7,700 bases of DNA from a virus (lineage: Duplodnaviria; Heunggongvirae; Uroviricota; Caudoviricetes). The notes under the pieces were generated by a model. That model made no database searches and was not told the origin of the DNA. It worked only from the letters and a program-made list of their open reading frames with translations. The first letter of the stretch is position 1. Each line of letters starts with the position of its first letter. The DNA is taken from the IMG/VR virus record IMGVR_UViG_2529292718_000010; one strand, written 5' to 3'. The translations under genes were made by a program, and so were the position numbers. Below, piece after piece: positions 1 through 7,349 of the stretch.

Positions 1-851
1 TCCTGCGTGAAGCGCTGTTCCGGTGTCTGCCTGAACTGGCGAAGTTCTCGCCTGTCAGCAACGTCAGCCATCCACTGCTCCAGTAGCTGGTTAACATGGG
101 CGAAGCTGTCGAACCGGCGGTACCGGACGAAGAAGTTTTCCTTGAGGTATTTCACCATCCGTTCAACCTTACCTTTGGTTCTGGCCCTTCGTGGACGGCA
201 GGCCCGTGGCAGGAAGCCATAGTGATCGGCCAGCAGCAGGAACCCGGAGTTGAACACCACCTTCCCATTGTTATTTTTCAGAACTGCGGCTTTCTGGTTA
301 TCGACCAGCACGGTTTTCACGCTACCGCCGAAGTAGCGAAAGGCGCGGACCAGTGACTCATAGGTATGTTCAGCATCCTGCTTTGGTGCCGCGAAGACAT
401 GGAAGCGACGTGAGAACCCCAGCGTATTAACCGCGAAGTTAACCCTGCATCGTTGCCCGGCAACCTCAGCCTCAACTTCTCCCCAGTCATGCTGTAGCTG
501 GTAACCGGGCTGAGTTTCGAAGCGAACCGTTTTCTTCGATGGCCGCATCTTACGTTTGGGCTGGATGTAGTAGCGCAACATGGAACGGCCACCGGTATAA
601 CCCATCGCTTTGATTTCCGCCAGGATGACCTCGCCGTTCCAGACGTTCTCAGCCAGACGCATATCTATATAGTCCATGAACGGCTTGAGTTTGGCCATTT
701 TGTGGCGTGTTTTTCTGGCCGGAGGTTCCGGGTATTTCAGGTACCGTCTGACGGTCCGCTCAGAGCAACCAACCTGAGTGGCAATATCAACAATATACGC
801 ACCTTGCTGGCGCATTTGCTTTATCATGTAAAAATCCTCTCTGCTCAGCAT
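1..851 (-). CDS. istA: IS21-family transposase IstA, N-terminal 283 codons (3' end outside window)
   Basis: Manual minus-strand translation: MLSREDFYMIKQMRQQGAYIVDIATQVGCSERTVRRYLKYPEPPARKTRHKMAKLKPFMDYIDMRLAENVWNGEVILAEIKAMGYTGGRSMLRYYIQPKRKMRPSKKTVRFETQPGYQLQHDWGEVEVAGQRCRVNFAVNTLGFSRRFHVFAAPKQDAEHTYESLVRAFRYFGGSVKTVLVDNQKAAVLKNNNGKVVFNSGFLLLADHYGFLPRACRPRRARTKGKVERMVKYLKENFFVRYRRFDSFAHVNQLLEQWMADVADRRELRQFRQTPEQRFTQ... with no stop. N-terminal HTH followed by a DDE-type core is typical of IstA. Missing from the ORF track only because no stop codon lies in the window. Confidence 0.8.
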   Translation of the reverse strand, partial: MLSREDFYMIKQMRQQGAYIVDIATQVGCSERTVRRYLKYPEPPARKTRHKMAKLKPFMDYIDMRLAENVWNGEVILAEIKAMGYTGGRSMLRYYIQPKRKMRPSKKTVRFETQPGYQLQHDWGEVEAEVAGQRCRVNFAVNTLGFSRRFHVFAAPKQDAEHTYESLVRAFRYFGGSVKTVLVDNQKAAVLKNNNGKVVFNSGFLLLADHYGFLPRACRPRRARTKGKVERMVKYLKENFFVRYRRFDSFAHVNQLLEQWMADVADRRELRQFRQTPEQRFTQ

Positions 852-952
852 GAGTGTTCCCTTTGTGGTGTAGGAACCTTAAGGAAACAACATGTTGGGT
901 GGAGCGGACAATCCAAATGGTGAATTACTGTCTTATATCATTGGCGCTGACA
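1..952 (-). mobile_element. IS21-family insertion sequence, partial (left end plus 5' part of istA); continues beyond window start
   Basis: Minus-strand translation from ATG at 851 is open for 283 codons to the window edge and reads as IstA-like transposase (see istA feature). The non-coding end 852-952 terminates with TGTCAG on the minus strand exactly where integrase homology stops. Outer boundary is approximate (about +/-10 bp). Confidence 0.7.
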
Positions 953-1945
953 TAATGGGACGCCTGACTGAATCAGCCAGCTTGCCCAGGTGTGTCTGAG
1001 GTCATGGAAACGGAAATCTTCAATTCCTGCACGACGACAAGCTGATAGCCATGATGTCTTGCTGTCGATGCGCATCTTCCTGACCGCAGGCGTTGATGTT
1101 CCATCTGCTCGCTTAGCCGCCTTGGTATGTACAAACACCCATTTGTGATGCTTGCCTATTTGATCACGCAACACTTTACAGGCGGTATCGTTCAGCGCCA
1201 CACCAATGGCGCGGTTTGATTTGCTCTCTTCTGGATTCACCCAGGCAACTCGTCGCTGCATGTCGATTTGTTGCCATTCCAGATTTATGATGTTCGACTT
1301 TCTCAGACCAGTTGCCAGCGCAAACTTGACGACAGATTTCAGTGGTTCGGGGCACTCATCAATAAGGCGTTTTGCTTCCTCCTTTTCCAGCCATCTGACT
1401 CGCTTGTTTCTGACCGCTGGTATCTTGATGACAGGCGCTTTTTCCAGCCACTTCCAGTCGCGTTCTGCAGCACGGAGAATGGCCTTTATCATGGCAAGAT
1501 GCTTTGCCTTTGTCTGAGTTGATACTGGCTTTGGTTCATAAACAGGCGGTTCTTTACCTTTCCTGATGGCGGCCTGAACTTTCTGTTTCCATATTTCTTT
1601 CGTCTTTCTGTTATGCATTCTGCTTACAGCAGAGTAAATCTTTGCCTCCGAGATATCTTTAAGCCTTATACCCTCAAAATGTTCAAGCCAGAACTCAATC
1701 CGGCTTTTATCTGAATCGAGAGATTTTTTATCAGCTTTTTCCTCAAGCCATCTTAGGCAGGCCTCTTCAAAAGTGACATCAGGTAAATCCCCTAGCTTTT
1801 CTACTCGCCAGAGTTCTGCTTTTCGCTTGTCGTGCAACTCCTGAGCTTGCCGCTTGTCCTTTGTGCCAAGAGATTCCTTAATTCGTTTCCCGCCCGGGAG
1901 CGAATACGAGGCATACCATATTTCATTTCTGCGGAAGAGTGACAT
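938..1945 (-). pseudogene. intD: Phage tyrosine integrase (DLP12 IntD-like), 3'-truncated by the IS21-family insertion
   Basis: 335-aa ORF with a phage-integrase N-terminus ([34 protein letters not shown]...) and the conserved [18 protein letters not shown] box, then only CQRQ-stop, which is read from IS sequence. The downstream LLGH...Y catalytic tyrosine segment is absent. Strong RBS (AGAGGAAAG) before the ATG at 1945. The intD symbol is by family and context, not verified. Confidence 0.85.
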
Positions 1946-2172
1946 TTTCTTTCCTCTGTTATGCCATCACCCGCGCTCACCTGGACAGTATGCAGCGGAG
2001 ACTGAAGCGCCGCAATGCAGGCTTGCCGTGTTGTGAGGTAAGGAGATTTTGGCTTGGTTGGATCTTTACGTGTTGCCTGTAGGCGGCCTGTTCGTATCCA
2101 GTTGGTGGCGGTTGGTCTGGATATCTTAAGAAACTGACAGGCCTCATCGAGTGTGAGGCTGTATGATTCCAT
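1801..2172 (-). CDS. xis: Excisionase-like protein (lambda Xis-type), 123 codons with an unusually long C-terminal extension
   Basis: ORF-track 133-aa ORF trimmed to the Met with a good RBS (AGAGGT, 5 nt spacing): [31 protein letters not shown]... resembles the lambda Xis N-terminal pattern. Lies immediately upstream of int on the same strand. The 3' end overlaps int by 145 bp. Confidence 0.6.
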
Positions 2173-2422
2173 GGTTACCTCTGCTTTTTGAACGCATGTC
2201 ACGTAACTTCTTAATGTGTTCTGCCGTTTCGATCTCTTCTGCTATCCGATCTGCATCAGCTTTATTCACAGGTTCAAAGTCATGATTAAAGCGGAACATG
2301 CTGGCGATACATGTTCTGCCTTTTCGGATGTAGTGAACTTTGTTGTGGGTAGAACGCAGGATTTTGCAGGGAGTGCCGTGGTGGTCGACGTACCAGGTGT
2401 TAGGCAAAATGATTCTGAACAT
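2144..2422 (-). CDS. Hypothetical small protein (92 aa), first gene of the ORF92-xis-int string
   Basis: ORF MFRIILPNTWYVDHHGTPCKILRSTHNKVHYIRKGRTCIASMFRFNHDFEPVNK... with RBS AGGTG 5-6 nt upstream of the ATG. Overlaps the xis start by 29 bp, consistent with translational coupling. Family not recognised with confidence. Confidence 0.45.
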   Translation of the reverse strand: MFRIILPNTWYVDHHGTPCKILRSTHNKVHYIRKGRTCIASMFRFNHDFEPVNKADADRIAEEIETAEHIKKLRDMRSKSRGNHGIIQPHTR

Positions 2423-2435
2423 TTTTACACCTCAG

Positions 2436-2495
2436 TTGGAAGGTATGGCGAAAACACAGGTTATGTGGCTGAAAGAGGGGATTATTAAGGCGTGA
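2436..2495 (+). pseudogene. ybcO: 3' remnant of a ybcO-like (DUF1364) gene
   Basis: In-frame reading ends ...[19 protein letters not shown]-stop, matching my recollection of the YbcO C-terminus (...LEGMARTQVIWLKEGVIKA). Further upstream in the same frame the sequence is unrelated and hits a stop at 2334-2336. The stop (2493-2495) overlaps the rusA GTG start (GTGA), a typical coupled junction. Confidence 0.4.
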
Positions 2496-2854
2496 ATACC
2501 TACAGTATCACATTCCCCTGGCCTCCGAGCAATAATCGCTATTCCCGCCATAATCGCGGGCGCACGCACGTCAGCGCAGAGGGGCAGGCATACCGCGATA
2601 ACGTCGCCAGAATCATTAAAAACGCAATGCTGGATATCGGCCTGGCTATCCCTGTGAAAATCCGCATTGAGTGCCACATGCCGGATCGCCGTCGCCGTGA
2701 CCTGGATAATCTGCAAAAAGCCGCTTTTGACGCACTCACTAAAGCAGGTTTCTGGCTGGATGATGCTCAGGTCGTTGATTACCGCGTTGTGAAGATGCCT
2801 GTTACCAAAGGTGGGAGGCTGGAACTGACCATCACCGAAATGGGGAATGAATGA
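2492..2854 (+). CDS. rusA: Holliday junction resolvase RusA
   Basis: 120-aa ORF from a GTG start: [120 protein letters not shown], recognised as RusA. Length and position upstream of Q fit the nin region. Confidence 0.9.
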
Positions 2855-2991
2855 TGTTTGAGTTTAATATGGCAGAACTTCTTCGCCACCGCTGGATGCG
2901 CCTGCGCTTATATCGTTTCCCCAGTTCTGTTTTGACCGATTACCGAATACTGAGGAATTACGCCAAAACCCTGACAGGAGCAGGAGTATGA
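2851..2991 (+). CDS. ylcG: Small nin-region protein YlcG-like (46 aa)
   Basis: ATG overlaps the rusA stop (ATGA). Translation [46 protein letters not shown] matches my recollection of DLP12 YlcG. Below the ORF-track size cutoff, so found by hand. Confidence 0.6.
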
Positions 2992-3076
2992 AGTCAGAGA
3001 TAACAATCAACTAATACTGTTTTATTGATTTTTGCTTGTAATTGGCGTTCTGGTCTGATTTTTGTGGAGTAAGTTG

Positions 3077-3460
3077 ATGCGTGATATTCAGATGGTTCTT
3101 GAGCGTTGGGGAGCGTGGGCGGCTAATAATCATGAAGATGTGACCTGGTCGTCCATTGCCGCCGGTTTTAAGGGATTAATTACTTCAAAAGTAAAATCTC
3201 GCCCGCAATGTTGTGACGATGACGCGATGATCATTTGCGGGTGCATGGCCCGTCTGAAAAAGAACAACAGCGATTTGCACGATTTATTAGTAGATTATTA
3301 TGTAGTCGGTATGACATTCATGTCACTGGCAGGTAAGCATTGCTGCTCTGATGGTTATATCGGGAAAAGGTTACAGAAGGCTGAGGGCATAATTGAAGGG
3401 ATGTTAATGGCATTAGATATCCGGTTAGAGATGGATATCGTTGTTAATAACTCTAATTAA
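3077..3460 (+). CDS. quuD: Late-gene antiterminator Q (QuuD-like)
   Basis: ORF-track ORF trimmed to the ATG at 3077 with RBS GGAGTAAG: [64 protein letters not shown]... (127 aa). Cys-rich, and sits between the nin genes and the lysis cassette as in lambdoid phages. Confidence 0.85.
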
Positions 3461-3477
3461 TATGCCAATTGTTTACT

Positions 3478-3511
3478 AAAAATTATTAAAAATGGGGCGT
3501 TGAGACGCCCC
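3478..3511 (-). terminator. Intrinsic terminator for minus-strand transcription (candidate nmpC terminator)
   Basis: Stem GGGGCGT (3494-3500), loop TGAG, stem ACGCCCC (3505-3511). On the minus strand it is followed by ATTTTTAATAATTTTT. Confidence 0.45.
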
Positions 3512-3599
3512 CAAAAATAAAGGGTAATATATAACAGAAGGTTTATATAGTTAGAAGCAAGGTTGTGCTTCTAAAGGAAGTGGCTTGAGGGAGCCACTT

Positions 3600-3639
3600 A
3601 TATGTTGGGGAGGCAAAGCCTCCCGCAACATATCTTTTT
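3600..3639 (+). terminator. Intrinsic terminator for plus-strand transcription downstream of Q (tR'-like)
   Basis: 15-bp stem with one bulge (ATATGTTGGGGAGGC / GCCTCCCGCAACATAT), AAA loop, followed by CTTTTT at 3634-3639. It lies 11 bp from the nmpC stop on the opposite strand. Confidence 0.55.
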
Positions 3640-3649
3640 CGTAATCAGA

Positions 3650-4732
3650 TTAGAACTGATACACCAGACCTACAGCGACGATGTCGTCGGTATCAATACC
3701 AGCTGTTTTGGTAAACTTACTATCGTCAATTAAGTTGATTTTGTAATCAACAAAAGTGGACATGTTTTTATTAAAGTAGTAAGTAGCACCGACATCGACA
3801 TACTTGACTAAGTCTCGGTCACCATGAACACCAAGGTCTTTACCTTTTGACTGAAGGTAAGCAACAGATGGTCGCAGACCGAAGTCAAACTGATATTGTG
3901 CTACTGCTTCAAAGTTTTGTGCTTTGTTTGCAATATGGTTATTACCAAAAACGGTCATATTCTGAGTTTCAGAATATGTGGTAGCCAGATAGATATTGTT
4001 CGCATCATATTTCAGGCCTGCAGCCCATACTTCCGCATTTTTGCCGGAGGCATTGAATTTGCTCTTACCATAGGCGACCTGACCGTCAGTGCGATCTGAT
4101 TTAGCATAGGTTGCACCCACGCCGAATCCTTCATACTCATAAGTAGTGGAGAAACCGAAACCATCACCATTGGCTTCAGTTACGTCAGTGCGGTCATTTT
4201 TACCCTGATACTGAGCAGCAAAGTTCAGGCCATCGACCAGACCAAAGAAGTCGTTGTTACGATAGGTTGCAACACCAGTGGTGCGACCAGTCATGAACAC
4301 ATCTGTTTGGGTCCAGGTATCGCCACCGAATTCTGGCAGAACGTCAGTCCACGCACCGATGTCGTATGCTACCCCGTAGTTACGGCCGTAATCGATTGAG
4401 CCGTAGTCACCGAATTTCAGGCCTGCAAATGCAAGACGGGTTTTGTCTTTGGAGGAACCTTGAGATTCAGCGCGGTTGCCTTTGAATTCATATTCCCACT
4501 GACCGAAACCAGTCAGTTGATCGTTGATTTGGGTTTCACCTTTGAAGCCAAGACGGGCATAAGTAGTATCACCATCATCTGCATCGTTAGAGGAAAAGTA
4601 GTGCTTGGCATTAACTTTCCCGTACAGATCCAGCTTGTTACTGTCTTTATTATAAATTTCAGCTGCCTGAGCAGACATCGTCATCAGTACTGATGCAGCT
4701 ACAGCAGAAATTGCCACTGTTAATTTTTTCAT
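3650..4732 (-). CDS. nmpC: Phage-encoded general porin (NmpC/Lc/OmpD-type), apparently intact
   Basis: 360-aa ORF with signal peptide [23 protein letters not shown], a Gly/Tyr/Asp-rich beta-barrel composition and the C-terminal ...VGLVYQF aromatic end typical of outer-membrane porins. Located between Q and the holin on the opposite strand, as in DLP12/PA-2. Confidence 0.9.
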
Positions 4733-5320
4733 CGTGAGCCCTTTTTTTTGAACTATTATTAAAAAATGATGTCACTGCGCGATAAATATTCATCTAATCA
4801 ATGTGATTATTTCAAGATGTAAGTTTTAGTTTCTCATTTAATTTGTGAAGTAGATCTCTATTTTTATCTGAACTTTTTCTATCGAAACCTATTTATAGCT
4901 CTTATTTGAACAAAAATAAACCTATTAGCTAATTTATATTAATGGCTGTTATTTATGGGGGTTCTATAATTCGGTGGTTTAATTTAAATCAACTAAAAAT
5001 AACGCCGGAAATTATTTATTGGTTATTTGTTGAGGTTTTCTTATATATTTGTGGTGGTGTTTTGAACACTCGGTAGCATTCTCATAAATATCATTCAGTG
5101 GTTTACGTACGTAAAAAATTGGTTATGCTGTTAAGAGTGGTTACTTCGTCACACAGCTTAAACCCGCCGTCGAGCTGGTTTTTCCATTTTTTGAGTCTCG
5201 ATATTAGCTGATAACTCAATACCTGAGTTATTCACTGACTCCGAGTCTGTTACGTTTCTGCTTTTTTGCGATACGTTGTATTCCCTCAATTTACACCCGC
5301 TTTGTCTGCGAGGTGGGGTT
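4733..5320. promoter_or_regulatory. AT-rich intergenic region holding the nmpC promoter (minus) and possibly late-operon control elements (plus)
   Basis: About 590 bp of strongly AT-rich non-coding DNA between the divergent nmpC and essD starts, with no ORF of 60 aa or more. Contains a 14-bp perfect palindrome TTTACGTACGTAAA at 5102-5115. Exact promoters not resolved. Confidence 0.4.
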
Positions 5321-5536
5321 ATGAAATCCATGGATAAGTTAACAACGGGTGTCGCCTATGGCACCTCAGCAGGTAGTGCCGGTTACTGGTTTTTACAGCT
5401 GCTCGATAAAGTCACGCCCTCACAGTGGGCAGCAATAGGTGTGCTGGGTAGCCTGGTATTTGGCCTGCTGACGTACCTGACAAACCTTTATTTCAAGATT
5501 AAAGAAGATAAGCGCAAGGCTGCGAGAGGTGAATAA
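5321..5536 (+). CDS. essD: Class II holin (S21-type pinholin) with dual-start motif
   Basis: [71 protein letters not shown] (71 aa): two TMDs, the first Gly/Ala-rich. Met1/Met4 (MKSM) is the classic holin/antiholin dual start. RBS GAGGTGG. The ORF-track start at 5276 is a TTG extension. Stop overlaps the endolysin ATG. Confidence 0.9.
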
Positions 5537-6033
5537 TGCCTCCATCATTACGAAAAGCCGTTGCTGCTGCTATTGGTGGCGGAGCAATTGCTATAGCATC
5601 AGTGTTAATCACTGGCCCAAGTGGTAACGATGGTCTGAAAGGTGTCAGCTACATACCATACAAAGATATTGTTGGTGTATGGACTGTATGTCACGGGCAT
5701 ACAGGAAAAGACATCATGCTCGGTAAAACGTATACCAAAGCAGAATGCAAAGCCCTCCTGAATAAAGACCTTGCCACGGTCGCCAGACAAATTAACCCGT
5801 ACATAAAAGTTGATATACCGGAAACAACGCGCGGCGCTCTTTACTCGTTCGTTTACAACGTGGGCGCTGGCAATTTCAGAACATCGACGCTTCTTCGCAA
5901 AATAAACCAGGGCGATATCAAAGGCGCATGTGATCAGCTACGTCGCTGGACATATGCTGGCGGTAAGCAATGGAAAGGTCTCATGACTCGTCGTGAGATT
6001 GAGCGTGAAATCTGTTTGTGGGGTCAGCAATGA
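5536..6033 (+). CDS. rrrD: SAR endolysin (T4-lysozyme family, R21/RrrD-like)
   Basis: 165 aa. N-terminal signal-anchor-release domain [20 protein letters not shown], then the lysozyme core ...[25 protein letters not shown]. Codon 35 is AAA (Lys), see findings. Confidence 0.9.
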
Positions 6034-6491
6034 ACAGAGTAACCGCGATTATCTCCGCTCTGGTTATCTGCATCATCGTCTGCCTGTCATGGGCTGTTAA
6101 TCATTACCGTGATAACGCCATTACCTACAAAGCCCAGCGCGACAAAAATGCCAGAGAACTGAAGCTGGCGAACGCGGCAATTACTGACATGCAGATGCGC
6201 CAGCGTGATGTTGCTGCACTGGATGAAAAATACACGAAGGAGTTAGCTAATGCGAAAGCTGAAAATGATGCTCTGCGTGATGATGTTGCCGCTGGTCGTC
6301 GTCGGTTGCACATCAAAGCAGTCTGTCAGTCAGTGCGTGAAGCCACCACCGCCTCCGGCGTGGATAATGCAGCCTCCCCCCGACTGGCAGACACCGCTGA
6401 ACGGGATTATTTCACCCTCAGAGAGAGGCTGATCACTATGCAAAAACAACTGGAAGGAACCCAGAAGTATATTAATGAGCAGTGCAGATAG
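6030..6491 (+). CDS. rzpD: i-spanin Rz
   Basis: ATG overlaps the endolysin stop (ATGA). [55 protein letters not shown]... (153 aa): N-terminal TMD plus coiled-coil periplasmic domain, lambda Rz-like. The ORF-track start at 6018 is an upstream alternative start. Confidence 0.85.
6250..6432 (+). CDS. rzoD: o-spanin Rz1, embedded in the +1 frame of Rz
   Basis: [60 protein letters not shown] (60 aa): lipobox VVGC, proline-rich. Strong SD AAGGAG 7 nt upstream. Entirely inside Rz, the classic embedded arrangement. Confidence 0.8.
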
Positions 6492-7175: not shown

Positions 7176-7326
7176 TTATTCATCATCACTCTGGATTGAT
7201 GTATATGCTCTCTTTTCTGACGTTAGTCTCCGACGGCAGGCTTCAATGACCCAGGCTGAGAAATTCCCAGACCCTTTTTGCTCAAGAGCGATGTTAATTT
7301 GTTCAATCATTTGGTTAGGAAAGCGG
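7176..7326 (-). pseudogene. ylcI: ylcI-like (DUF3950) gene, 5'-truncated by IS1
   Basis: Minus-strand reading from the IS1 junction: ...(I)RFPNQMIEQINIALEQKGSGNFSAWVIEACRRRLTSEKRAYTSIQSDDE-stop. This matches my recollection of the YlcI/YnfO family motif NIRFPNQMIEQINIAL.QKGSGNFSAWVIEACRRRL. The first ~18 codons are replaced by IS1 starting at 7327. Confidence 0.5.
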
Positions 7327-7349
7327 GGTAATGACTCCAACTTATTGAT
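7327..7349. repeat. IS1 terminal inverted repeat
   Basis: GGTAATGACTCCAACTTATTGAT matches the canonical IS1 end sequence. Confidence 0.85.

Follow-up and report, generated by a model that had tools for sequence, protein, structure and literature searches.

The window analysed here, the whole stretch of 7,700 bases, is the entire draft-assembly contig AQDE01000020.1 (GCA_000355455.2) in reversed orientation, and both of its ends lie inside insertion sequences. At the left end, an IS21-family istA fragment (the transposase part; 1-951, minus strand) sits in the 3' end of intD, and the contig terminates within it. The family was assigned from the Pfam rve domain of the called gene and from matches to the IS21-like istA of strain 582; similarity to intD-bearing loci begins at 952 when the window is compared with its relatives by BLAST. 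The DLP12 integrase gene (intD'; 938-1945, minus strand; PF00589, 123 bits) is cut by this element, encoding 335 amino acids versus 387 in the full-length protein, with the last few codons derived from the IS, and it is 99.8% identical at the DNA level to K-12 intD (952-2040). The start of intD is overlapped by an xis-like excisionase ORF (HTH_17; 1801-2172, minus strand; PF12728; phrog_2907 excisionase, E = 6e-46), and upstream of it lies ORF92, an intact gene for a DUF4222 protein (2144-2422, minus strand), which matches PF13973 with 69.6 bits over profile positions 1-53 of 53, belongs to phrog_285, a family of unknown function, and has an identical counterpart in FG92-1.

On the plus strand, a non-coding relic of ybcO (DUF1364; 2439-2495, codons 79-96 plus the stop) precedes an intact rusA gene for the Holliday-junction resolvase (2492-2854; PF05866, 78 bits against a cut-off of 22.8), followed by ylcG (2851-2991; phrog_2705, PF26818 on the called gene, and the RefSeq annotation in carriers of the joint described below) and by quuD, which encodes a Q-family antiterminator (3077-3460; PF06530, 179 bits). 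Then come an intact porin gene (3650-4732, minus strand), the lysis genes essD, rrrD and rzpD (5321-6491), bor/iss on the minus strand between the lysis genes and IS1, and IS1 itself, which starts at 7327 and inside which the contig stops. Pfam hits and colinear BLAST matches to K-12 and five other argU prophages place the late module rusA-ylcG-quuD-porin-essD-rrrD-rzpD-bor in this order; an Rfam scan of the whole window returned no family at the gathering score. In the finished genomes carrying the joint, intD is of full length and adjoins the tRNA-Arg gene argU, which in the window has been cut off by the IS21-family insertion. As judged from its sequence, the window is a DLP12-family defective lambdoid prophage.

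From 7327 on, IS1 cuts a ylcI-like gene (DUF3950), leaving an ORF of 54 amino acids (7176-7340). The DLP12 porin gene (nmpC, annotated as ompC-like; 360 amino acids) is uninterrupted in the window; the K-12 copy contains IS5 and the AR_0085 copy contains ISVsa5.

The start codons of the two divergent genes, ATG of ORF92 (2422-2420) and GTG of rusA (2492-2494, overlapping the TGA stop at 2493-2495), are separated by 69 bp (2423-2491), close to the ~70 bp given in an initial annotation of this DNA. That annotation had proposed that a deletion scar in this gap joins the int-xis module directly to the nin region, and this proposal is supported: both parents were found at the same argU site and the joint lies at a TGGA. 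DNA homology to K-12 ybcO-rusA begins exactly at 2437, and homology to the native sequence upstream of the DUF4222 gene stops exactly at 2440. In a search of 5,426 complete E. coli genomes with an 801-base query spanning the joint, thousands matched from base 338 (window 2437) on, over ybcO-rusA-ylcG, other genomes matched only up to base 341 (window 2440), over HTH-DUF4222, and 34 matched over the full length of the query. A three-way base-level alignment revealed no ybcO similarity left of 2437, in agreement with the earlier remark that the sequence upstream of the ybcO tail is unrelated, and no DUF4222-upstream similarity right of 2440.

The left parental context (FG92-1, AR_0085, TBE6 and XH988) reads ...CTCAGT TGGA CGATGTTGAAATTTGC... 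and runs into a TraR/DksA-like gene; the right parental context, within ybcO (the same four genomes and K-12), reads ...GCGCGC TGGA AGGTATGGCG...; and the window reads ...CTCAGT TGGA AGGTATGGCG.... FG92-1, AR_0085 and XH988 have TGGA at both parental sites, and the window has one TGGA at the joint. As the left parent matches through 2440, the right parent matches from 2437, and both sites carry TGGA, the joint is one kept copy (2437-2440) of a 4-bp direct repeat, which is what the search for microhomology suggested in the initial annotation has yielded. The distance of 14 bp between the ORF92 start and the junction, also given there, is exact (2423-2436). The RBS of ORF92 (GAGGTG in the minus-strand sequence, 2428-2433), recognized by reading the sequence and by comparison with relatives, had been placed at the junction. 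Positions 2433-2428 are indeed beside the joint, but the RBS is native and lies wholly in the left parent, 3 nt inside it and 5 nt from the ATG; it is identical in the undeleted AR_0085, XH988 and TBE6 and carries a single substitution in FG92-1 (GAGATG, window 2430).

The 10-mer CTCAGTTGGA at the left breakpoint (2431-2440) occurs again, base for base, in the D-arm of tRNA-Arg argU (L005 1249-1258), located 1.73 kb leftward on the same strand; this identity is probably a coincidence. Annotation pipelines call a 68-amino-acid "hypothetical protein" on the plus strand, antisense through ORF92 and over the joint (window 2282-2488; L001 7183-7389; L007 5206-5419). It is a fusion artefact, and for annotation purposes both this ORF and the ybcO fragment should be treated as non-genes.

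Translation of 2436-2495 gives 19 residues, to be compared with the C-terminus of the 96-residue YbcO of K-12, LEGMARTQVIWLKEGVIKA*. The true remnant consists of 18 whole codons (2439-2492) plus the stop, within the range of about 16 to 19 codons previously estimated to end at the rusA start, and the Leu codon at 2436-2438, which spans the joint, is of hybrid origin. Fifteen of the 18 residues are identical to K-12 YbcO 79-96, so the YbcO C-terminus assumed in the initial annotation was not wrong. At the DNA level, 53 of the 56 nucleotides at 2437-2492 match K-12 ybcO (3 SNPs), and all 56 match the relic in FG92-1 and AR_0085. The remnant is too short for Pfam and was assigned by colinear homology.

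In FG92-1, AR_0085 and XH988, ybcO comprises only ~30 codons after a shared 23 bp, CCGGTAAAGGGCATGCCAAGCAA (L006 6286-6375; L005 5009-5098), and ninE-ninX-(ybcO fragment)-rusA occurs at 98-99% identity in the viable phages ev207, ev017, 2G7b, mEp332, PhiR57_1, PhiR11_1 and Chlobot. The ~30-codon fragment is a mosaic joint of functional phages; about two thirds of ybcO had already gone in the parental phage type, and the event at the joint took only ~12 more codons. The loss of ybcO noted earlier is thus real in that the gene is truncated at the joint, but only this last portion of it can be assigned to the event. The phage-type ybcO frame has upstream stop codons and no start codon. As the fragment in viable phages precedes rusA without any upstream start codon, rusA is there independent of ybcO translation; for this reason, the idea that the truncation affects translational coupling of rusA to ybcO was rejected, and losing a further 12 codons should make no difference to how rusA is translated. 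In the predicted RusA translation, D70, D72, D91 and R66-R69 are all present.

Three rusA substitutions, at 2506, 2515 and 2544 (codons 5, 8 and 18), are clustered within 40 bp. The one at 2506 is synonymous and common to sibling IS21-carrying contigs; those at 2515 (L8F) and 2544 (Y18S) are private to the window contig. Y18 falls within the flexible loop of RusA, residues 15-28, which has been implicated in junction recognition (PMC1636454). These changes could be due to sequencing error, or to drift in a gene that is silent.

The flanks of the joint (1.5 kb to its left, 4.9 kb to its right) are 99.8-100% identical to relatives with undeleted sequence, indicating that the resemblance is not due to chance. 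The left flank of NCCP12480 is identical to the window at 1,488 of 1,488 positions. FG92-1 shows 99.87% identity in the left flank and 99.86% in the right flank (over 4,890 bp), and the values for AR_0085 are 99.93% and 99.8-99.9%, respectively. The argU prophage of XH988 is an apparently complete lambdoid prophage, in which intD, xis and the DUF4222 gene are followed by a TraR-like gene, small ORFs, exo, bet, gam, kil, cIII, ral, sieB, cI (LexA-family), cro (described as cro-like), cII, O, P, ren, ninB, dam, ninE and ninX, the genes from TraR-like to ninX lying between the two breakpoints. After ninX come a 90-nt ybcO fragment, rusA, ylcG, quuD, a porin gene, lysis genes, the terminase and head genes. 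In this prophage, 11,968 bp separate the two TGGA sites. As identity to the window is only 93% in its right arm, XH988 serves as a structural model and not as the direct ancestor.

FG92-1 and AR_0085, the two closest relatives, have already undergone part of the decay. The TGGA sites lie 2,054 bp apart in FG92-1, where exo has been fused to the ybcO fragment, and 3,331 bp apart in AR_0085, where the fusion is between fragments of dam (dam') and P (P'). The loss may therefore have amounted to 2.05 to ~12 kb, depending on the state of the precursor. Whichever precursor applies, the present window structure lacks all recombination, immunity and replication genes. The claim that a deletion of several kb removed these functions agrees with the content of the 11,968-bp interval in XH988, but it needs qualification in that possibly only 2.05 or 3.33 kb disappeared from an already decayed precursor.

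Several other genomes were considered as references. The alignment to K-12 DLP12 proposed earlier places the right breakpoint at 2437, but this prophage was rejected as an undeleted reference because it lacks 2041-2436, and ORF92 with it, and has joints of its own. TBE6 was rejected as the left parent because its prophage lies at thrW with a different integrase and is only 89% identical left of ORF92; argU relatives were used instead. A third joint type ("TGGCCG") seemingly present in XH988 and Z217-4 proved to be an artefact of BLAST extension, both sequences being native. The prophage of Z217-4 (L015 4480-12247) resides at the icd (e14) site. Its integrase and excisionase differ from those of the window, and its DUF4222-TraR-DGQHR-exo segment is fused to O'-P-ren-emrE-ybcK; here the central region of DLP12 type occupies a different attachment site and has an exo|O' joint of its own.

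At either endpoint, there was no IS, no att-like site and no long repeat or homology, and the two endpoint contexts have only TGGA and scattered matches in common. The calculated probability of 4 bp or more of microhomology at a random blunt joint is ~0.016. A structural hot spot at the breakpoints was rejected, as single-strand DNA folding of the joint and of the two native sites gave unremarkable z values, from -1.2 to +0.85. All features tested for a microhomology-mediated deletion were found, namely identified parents on both sides, a short repeat, and freedom from a mobile element or long homology.

The joint is carried by 34 of the 5,426 complete E. coli genomes (0.6%). Named carriers include the O6:H16 strains 2014EL-1346-6, 2011EL-1370-2 and M9682-C1, together with TW10598, B2C, FMU073332 and the human isolates E8 to E2386. 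TW10598 and B2C are strains that we take to be enterotoxigenic E. coli (ETEC) of serotype O6:H16, and on this basis the carrier lineage is probably ETEC. The joint occurred in none of 50,697 phage records, and no phage natively carrying the arrangement, which would have spoken against a deletion, was thus found among them; it was likewise seen in 0 of 184 viral and metagenomic public contigs that contain a 23-nt motif from its left side. Nine draft or metagenomic contigs carry the IS21-family insertion in intD together with an identical joint, while this insertion was found in none of the 5,426 complete genomes. It identifies a sublineage whose prophage excision is disabled twice over.

In a lambdoid prophage, pL transcribes ORF92-xis-int and pR transcribes the nin region. 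Both promoters and their regulators are absent from the joint-bearing prophage. A consensus scan for promoters and terminators covering 1900-3100, a weak test that misses weak, extended -10 or non-sigma-70 promoters, detected no promoter-like site in the 69-bp gap on either strand, none upstream of the genes in 1900-2500 (plus strand) or 2423-3100 (minus strand), and no terminators in 1900-3100. The sole promoter-like match, a weak one, lies inside rusA (2507-2536). These results agree, as far as such weak evidence goes, with the earlier statement that rusA and ORF92 have no obvious promoters. In K-12, rusA of DLP12 is quiescent and becomes active only once IS2 or IS10 inserts upstream (PMC1636454). 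The same scan, again as a weak test, gave no sigma-70-type site upstream of rusA that would correspond to the promoter creation seen in those rus-1 and rus-2 alleles. By analogy with K-12, rusA at the joint is probably silent, although our confidence in this is only moderate because a consensus scan is weak evidence. The joint looks like a passive scar and not a regulatory element.

With the breakpoints, the microhomology, the parental sequences, the lost gene content and the distribution read directly from the genomes compared, we consider it very likely that the joint arose by an internal deletion in a DLP12-family argU prophage, through TGGA-TGGA illegitimate recombination, and that it is a passive scar inherited vertically from a single event. 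The left TGGA lay 15 nt upstream of the DUF4222 gene (ORF92), and the right TGGA at codons 78/79 of the ybcO relic, just upstream of rusA. Recombination between them, independent of long homology, would have removed one TGGA plus the whole interval, i.e., ~12 kb from a full-length precursor or 2.05 to 3.33 kb from a partly decayed one. The likely route would be replication-associated slipped mispairing or template switching, or else end joining guided by microhomology; however, the molecular route is unreadable from one product, and 4 bp is short. The event presumably took place once and was followed by vertical inheritance in a narrow E. coli lineage. The resulting prophage is left without the repressor, pL, pR, the Red functions and the O/P replication genes; ORF92-xis-intD has lost pL-derived transcription and rusA-ylcG-quuD has lost pR-derived transcription. 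The two gene groups now diverge across 69 bp without a recognizable promoter, and rusA is expected to be quiescent as in K-12.

One observation fits this explanation less well, namely a second, independent deletion at the same left TGG, which is unexpected under a purely random process. In this second DLP12 deletion type, found in NCCP12480, FORC_082, O15_8X and one more complete genome (n = 4), the DUF4222 leader is fused to the O gene at codon ~72. Its joint crosses within the left TGG used in the window (window 2437-2439; L004 2986-2988) and reads ...CTCAGT TGG CCGGATTAAC..., the native O sequence being ...GTGATGC TGG CCGGATT.... The right-hand partners of both joint types read GCTGG. Among the 184 contigs with the 23-nt left motif, 178 show the native continuation, 3 have the NCCP12480-type joint and 2 are point variants. 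The idea that the left TGG is a hot spot for recombination in general was rejected, as no new joint type appeared among these contigs, and the shared endpoint may be due to chance, involving 2 of ~7 joints at the locus.

The most serious refinement of the TGGA-TGGA deletion is that the joint represents the last step of a serial decay, in which a precursor already missing most of its centre, like FG92-1 or AR_0085, lost only 2,054 or 3,331 bp. We regard this as nearly, though not quite, an even bet. It is favoured by the flanks of FG92-1 and AR_0085, which are as close to the window as those of any genome (0.07-0.14% divergence on both sides), by their identical RusA, YlcG and QuuD proteins and ybcO relic, and by the many different joints at the argU prophage locus, where stepwise decay is the norm. 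However, the SNPs do not choose between the precursors: there is no derived allele shared exclusively by the window and either FG92-1 or AR_0085, each of these two has private SNPs absent from the window, and the three form a trichotomy; of the genomes compared, only a fellow carrier has derived alleles in common with the window (position 4897). A one-step loss of 12 kb from an XH988-like ancestor fits equally well.

The two uses of the left TGG also admit readings in which the endpoint is more than a coincidence. The TGG 15 nt upstream of DUF4222 could be a preferred recombination site, or deletions there could be preferentially kept, channelling decay so as to retain intD-xis-DUF4222 and the RBS, and the joint could also alter rusA or DUF4222 expression in carriers. 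This seems improbable to us; if such a bias were real, it would bear on how defective prophages get trimmed, but its basis is two events.

Slightly less plausible still is the descent of the window joint from the NCCP12480-type joint, by a second deletion reusing the TGG followed by recombination in the rusA region. The left flank is 100% identical over 1,488 bp, both joints fall on one and the same TGG, and the window sequence would result from a TGG-TGG deletion. However, the region 2452-2923 differs from NCCP12480 by 17 SNPs (~3.6%), the first only 12 bp from the joint, at positions where FG92-1 and AR_0085 match the window, and the remaining flanks differ by ~0.1%. This pattern reflects a recombinational replacement of ybcO-rusA-ylcG between two DLP12 nin-region types. 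As the window and NCCP12480 joints thus lie on different nin-region haplotypes, common descent is unlikely: it would need an extra recombination breakpoint within ~12 bp of the joint and would rest on 3 bp of microhomology versus 4.

We hold it to be just as doubtful that the deletion was selected for changed expression, with rusA or ORF92 coming under a fortuitous promoter, comparable to the activation of rusA by IS2 or IS10 that suppresses ruv defects. Changes in upstream sequence can switch on rusA (PMC1636454), both rusA and ORF92 are intact with their RBSs, the RusA catalytic residues are kept, and the left endpoint was used twice, with ORF92 and its RBS kept both times. On the other hand, the consensus scan of 1900-2500 (plus) and 2423-3100 (minus) gave no promoter-like site, ORF92 has been lost entirely in K-12 and other lineages, the joint is present in only 0.6% of genomes, and the two private amino-acid changes in the window rusA are drift-like. 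Finally, the alternative that a functional phage natively has this mosaic boundary, or that the assembly is chimeric, with no in-situ deletion in either case, is suggested by the natural mosaicism of the DUF4222-TraR spacer in other prophages (with ASCH-gene insertions, and homology ending at the DUF4222 start) and by the nature of the window as a short draft contig bounded by IS copies, but it is effectively refuted by the identical joint in 34 finished genomes and at least nine independent contigs, by its absence from all 50,697 phage records, and by the fact that such a phage would lack immunity, replication and Red genes.

No paper describing the joint was found, although RefSeq genomes do contain it. 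The 60-bp joint can serve as a clean marker of clonality in the narrow lineage of E. coli that carries it and that has several members named O6:H16.

How does the TGGA-TGGA deletion compare with known systems? The classical short-homology spontaneous deletions of E. coli, the slipped-mispairing class reportedly described by Albertini et al. in 1982, have in common with the joint two short direct repeats, of which one is kept, an interval that is lost, and no mobile element. The repeat at the joint is only 4 bp, which is at the short end of what is typical for this class, and here the process is inferred from the product. XH988 represents the undeleted architecture, with both TGGA sites and the 12 kb lost in the window. 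The phages ev207, ev017, mEp332 and PhiR57_1 have a native ybcO fragment of ~30 codons directly before rusA, as described above, and keep the interval between the sites. In the rus-1 and rus-2 alleles of K-12 (IS2 and IS10; PMC1636454), sequence immediately upstream of rusA is likewise rearranged. Those alleles bring an IS-borne or hybrid promoter, whereas the joint brings the DUF4222 leader in antisense without a promoter-like site.

It is well known that DLP12 decays through deletions and IS insertions. No cryptic prophage of E. coli is more widespread: DLP12 occurs in 74% of 638 strains (PMC6379469). The K-12 order is intD ... ybcO-rusA-ylcG-quuD-nmpC-essD-rrrD-rzpD-borD, and K-12 DLP12 and the window are alike in their integrase, the argU site (in carriers) and the order rusA-ylcG-quuD-porin-lysis-bor, with 98.6% identity over 2437-3685. 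They differ in the centre. In K-12, homology to the left arm of the window stops at 2040 inside xis; xis' is fused to exo', exo' to P', and IS3 is inserted in ren. K-12 keeps emrE-ybcK-ybcL-ybcM-ybcN-ninE and the full 96-codon ybcO and has no ORF92, whereas the window keeps xis and ORF92, an intact porin gene and the phage-type haplotype of the ybcO relic, and lacks the genes from emrE to ninE. K-12 is therefore an unsuitable reference for the ancestral structure of DLP12. The joint is an ordinary one, one more lineage-specific variant of DLP12 decay and no new kind of element; its importance is small beyond bookkeeping, in that it adds one precisely mapped joint to the stepwise decay of this prophage.
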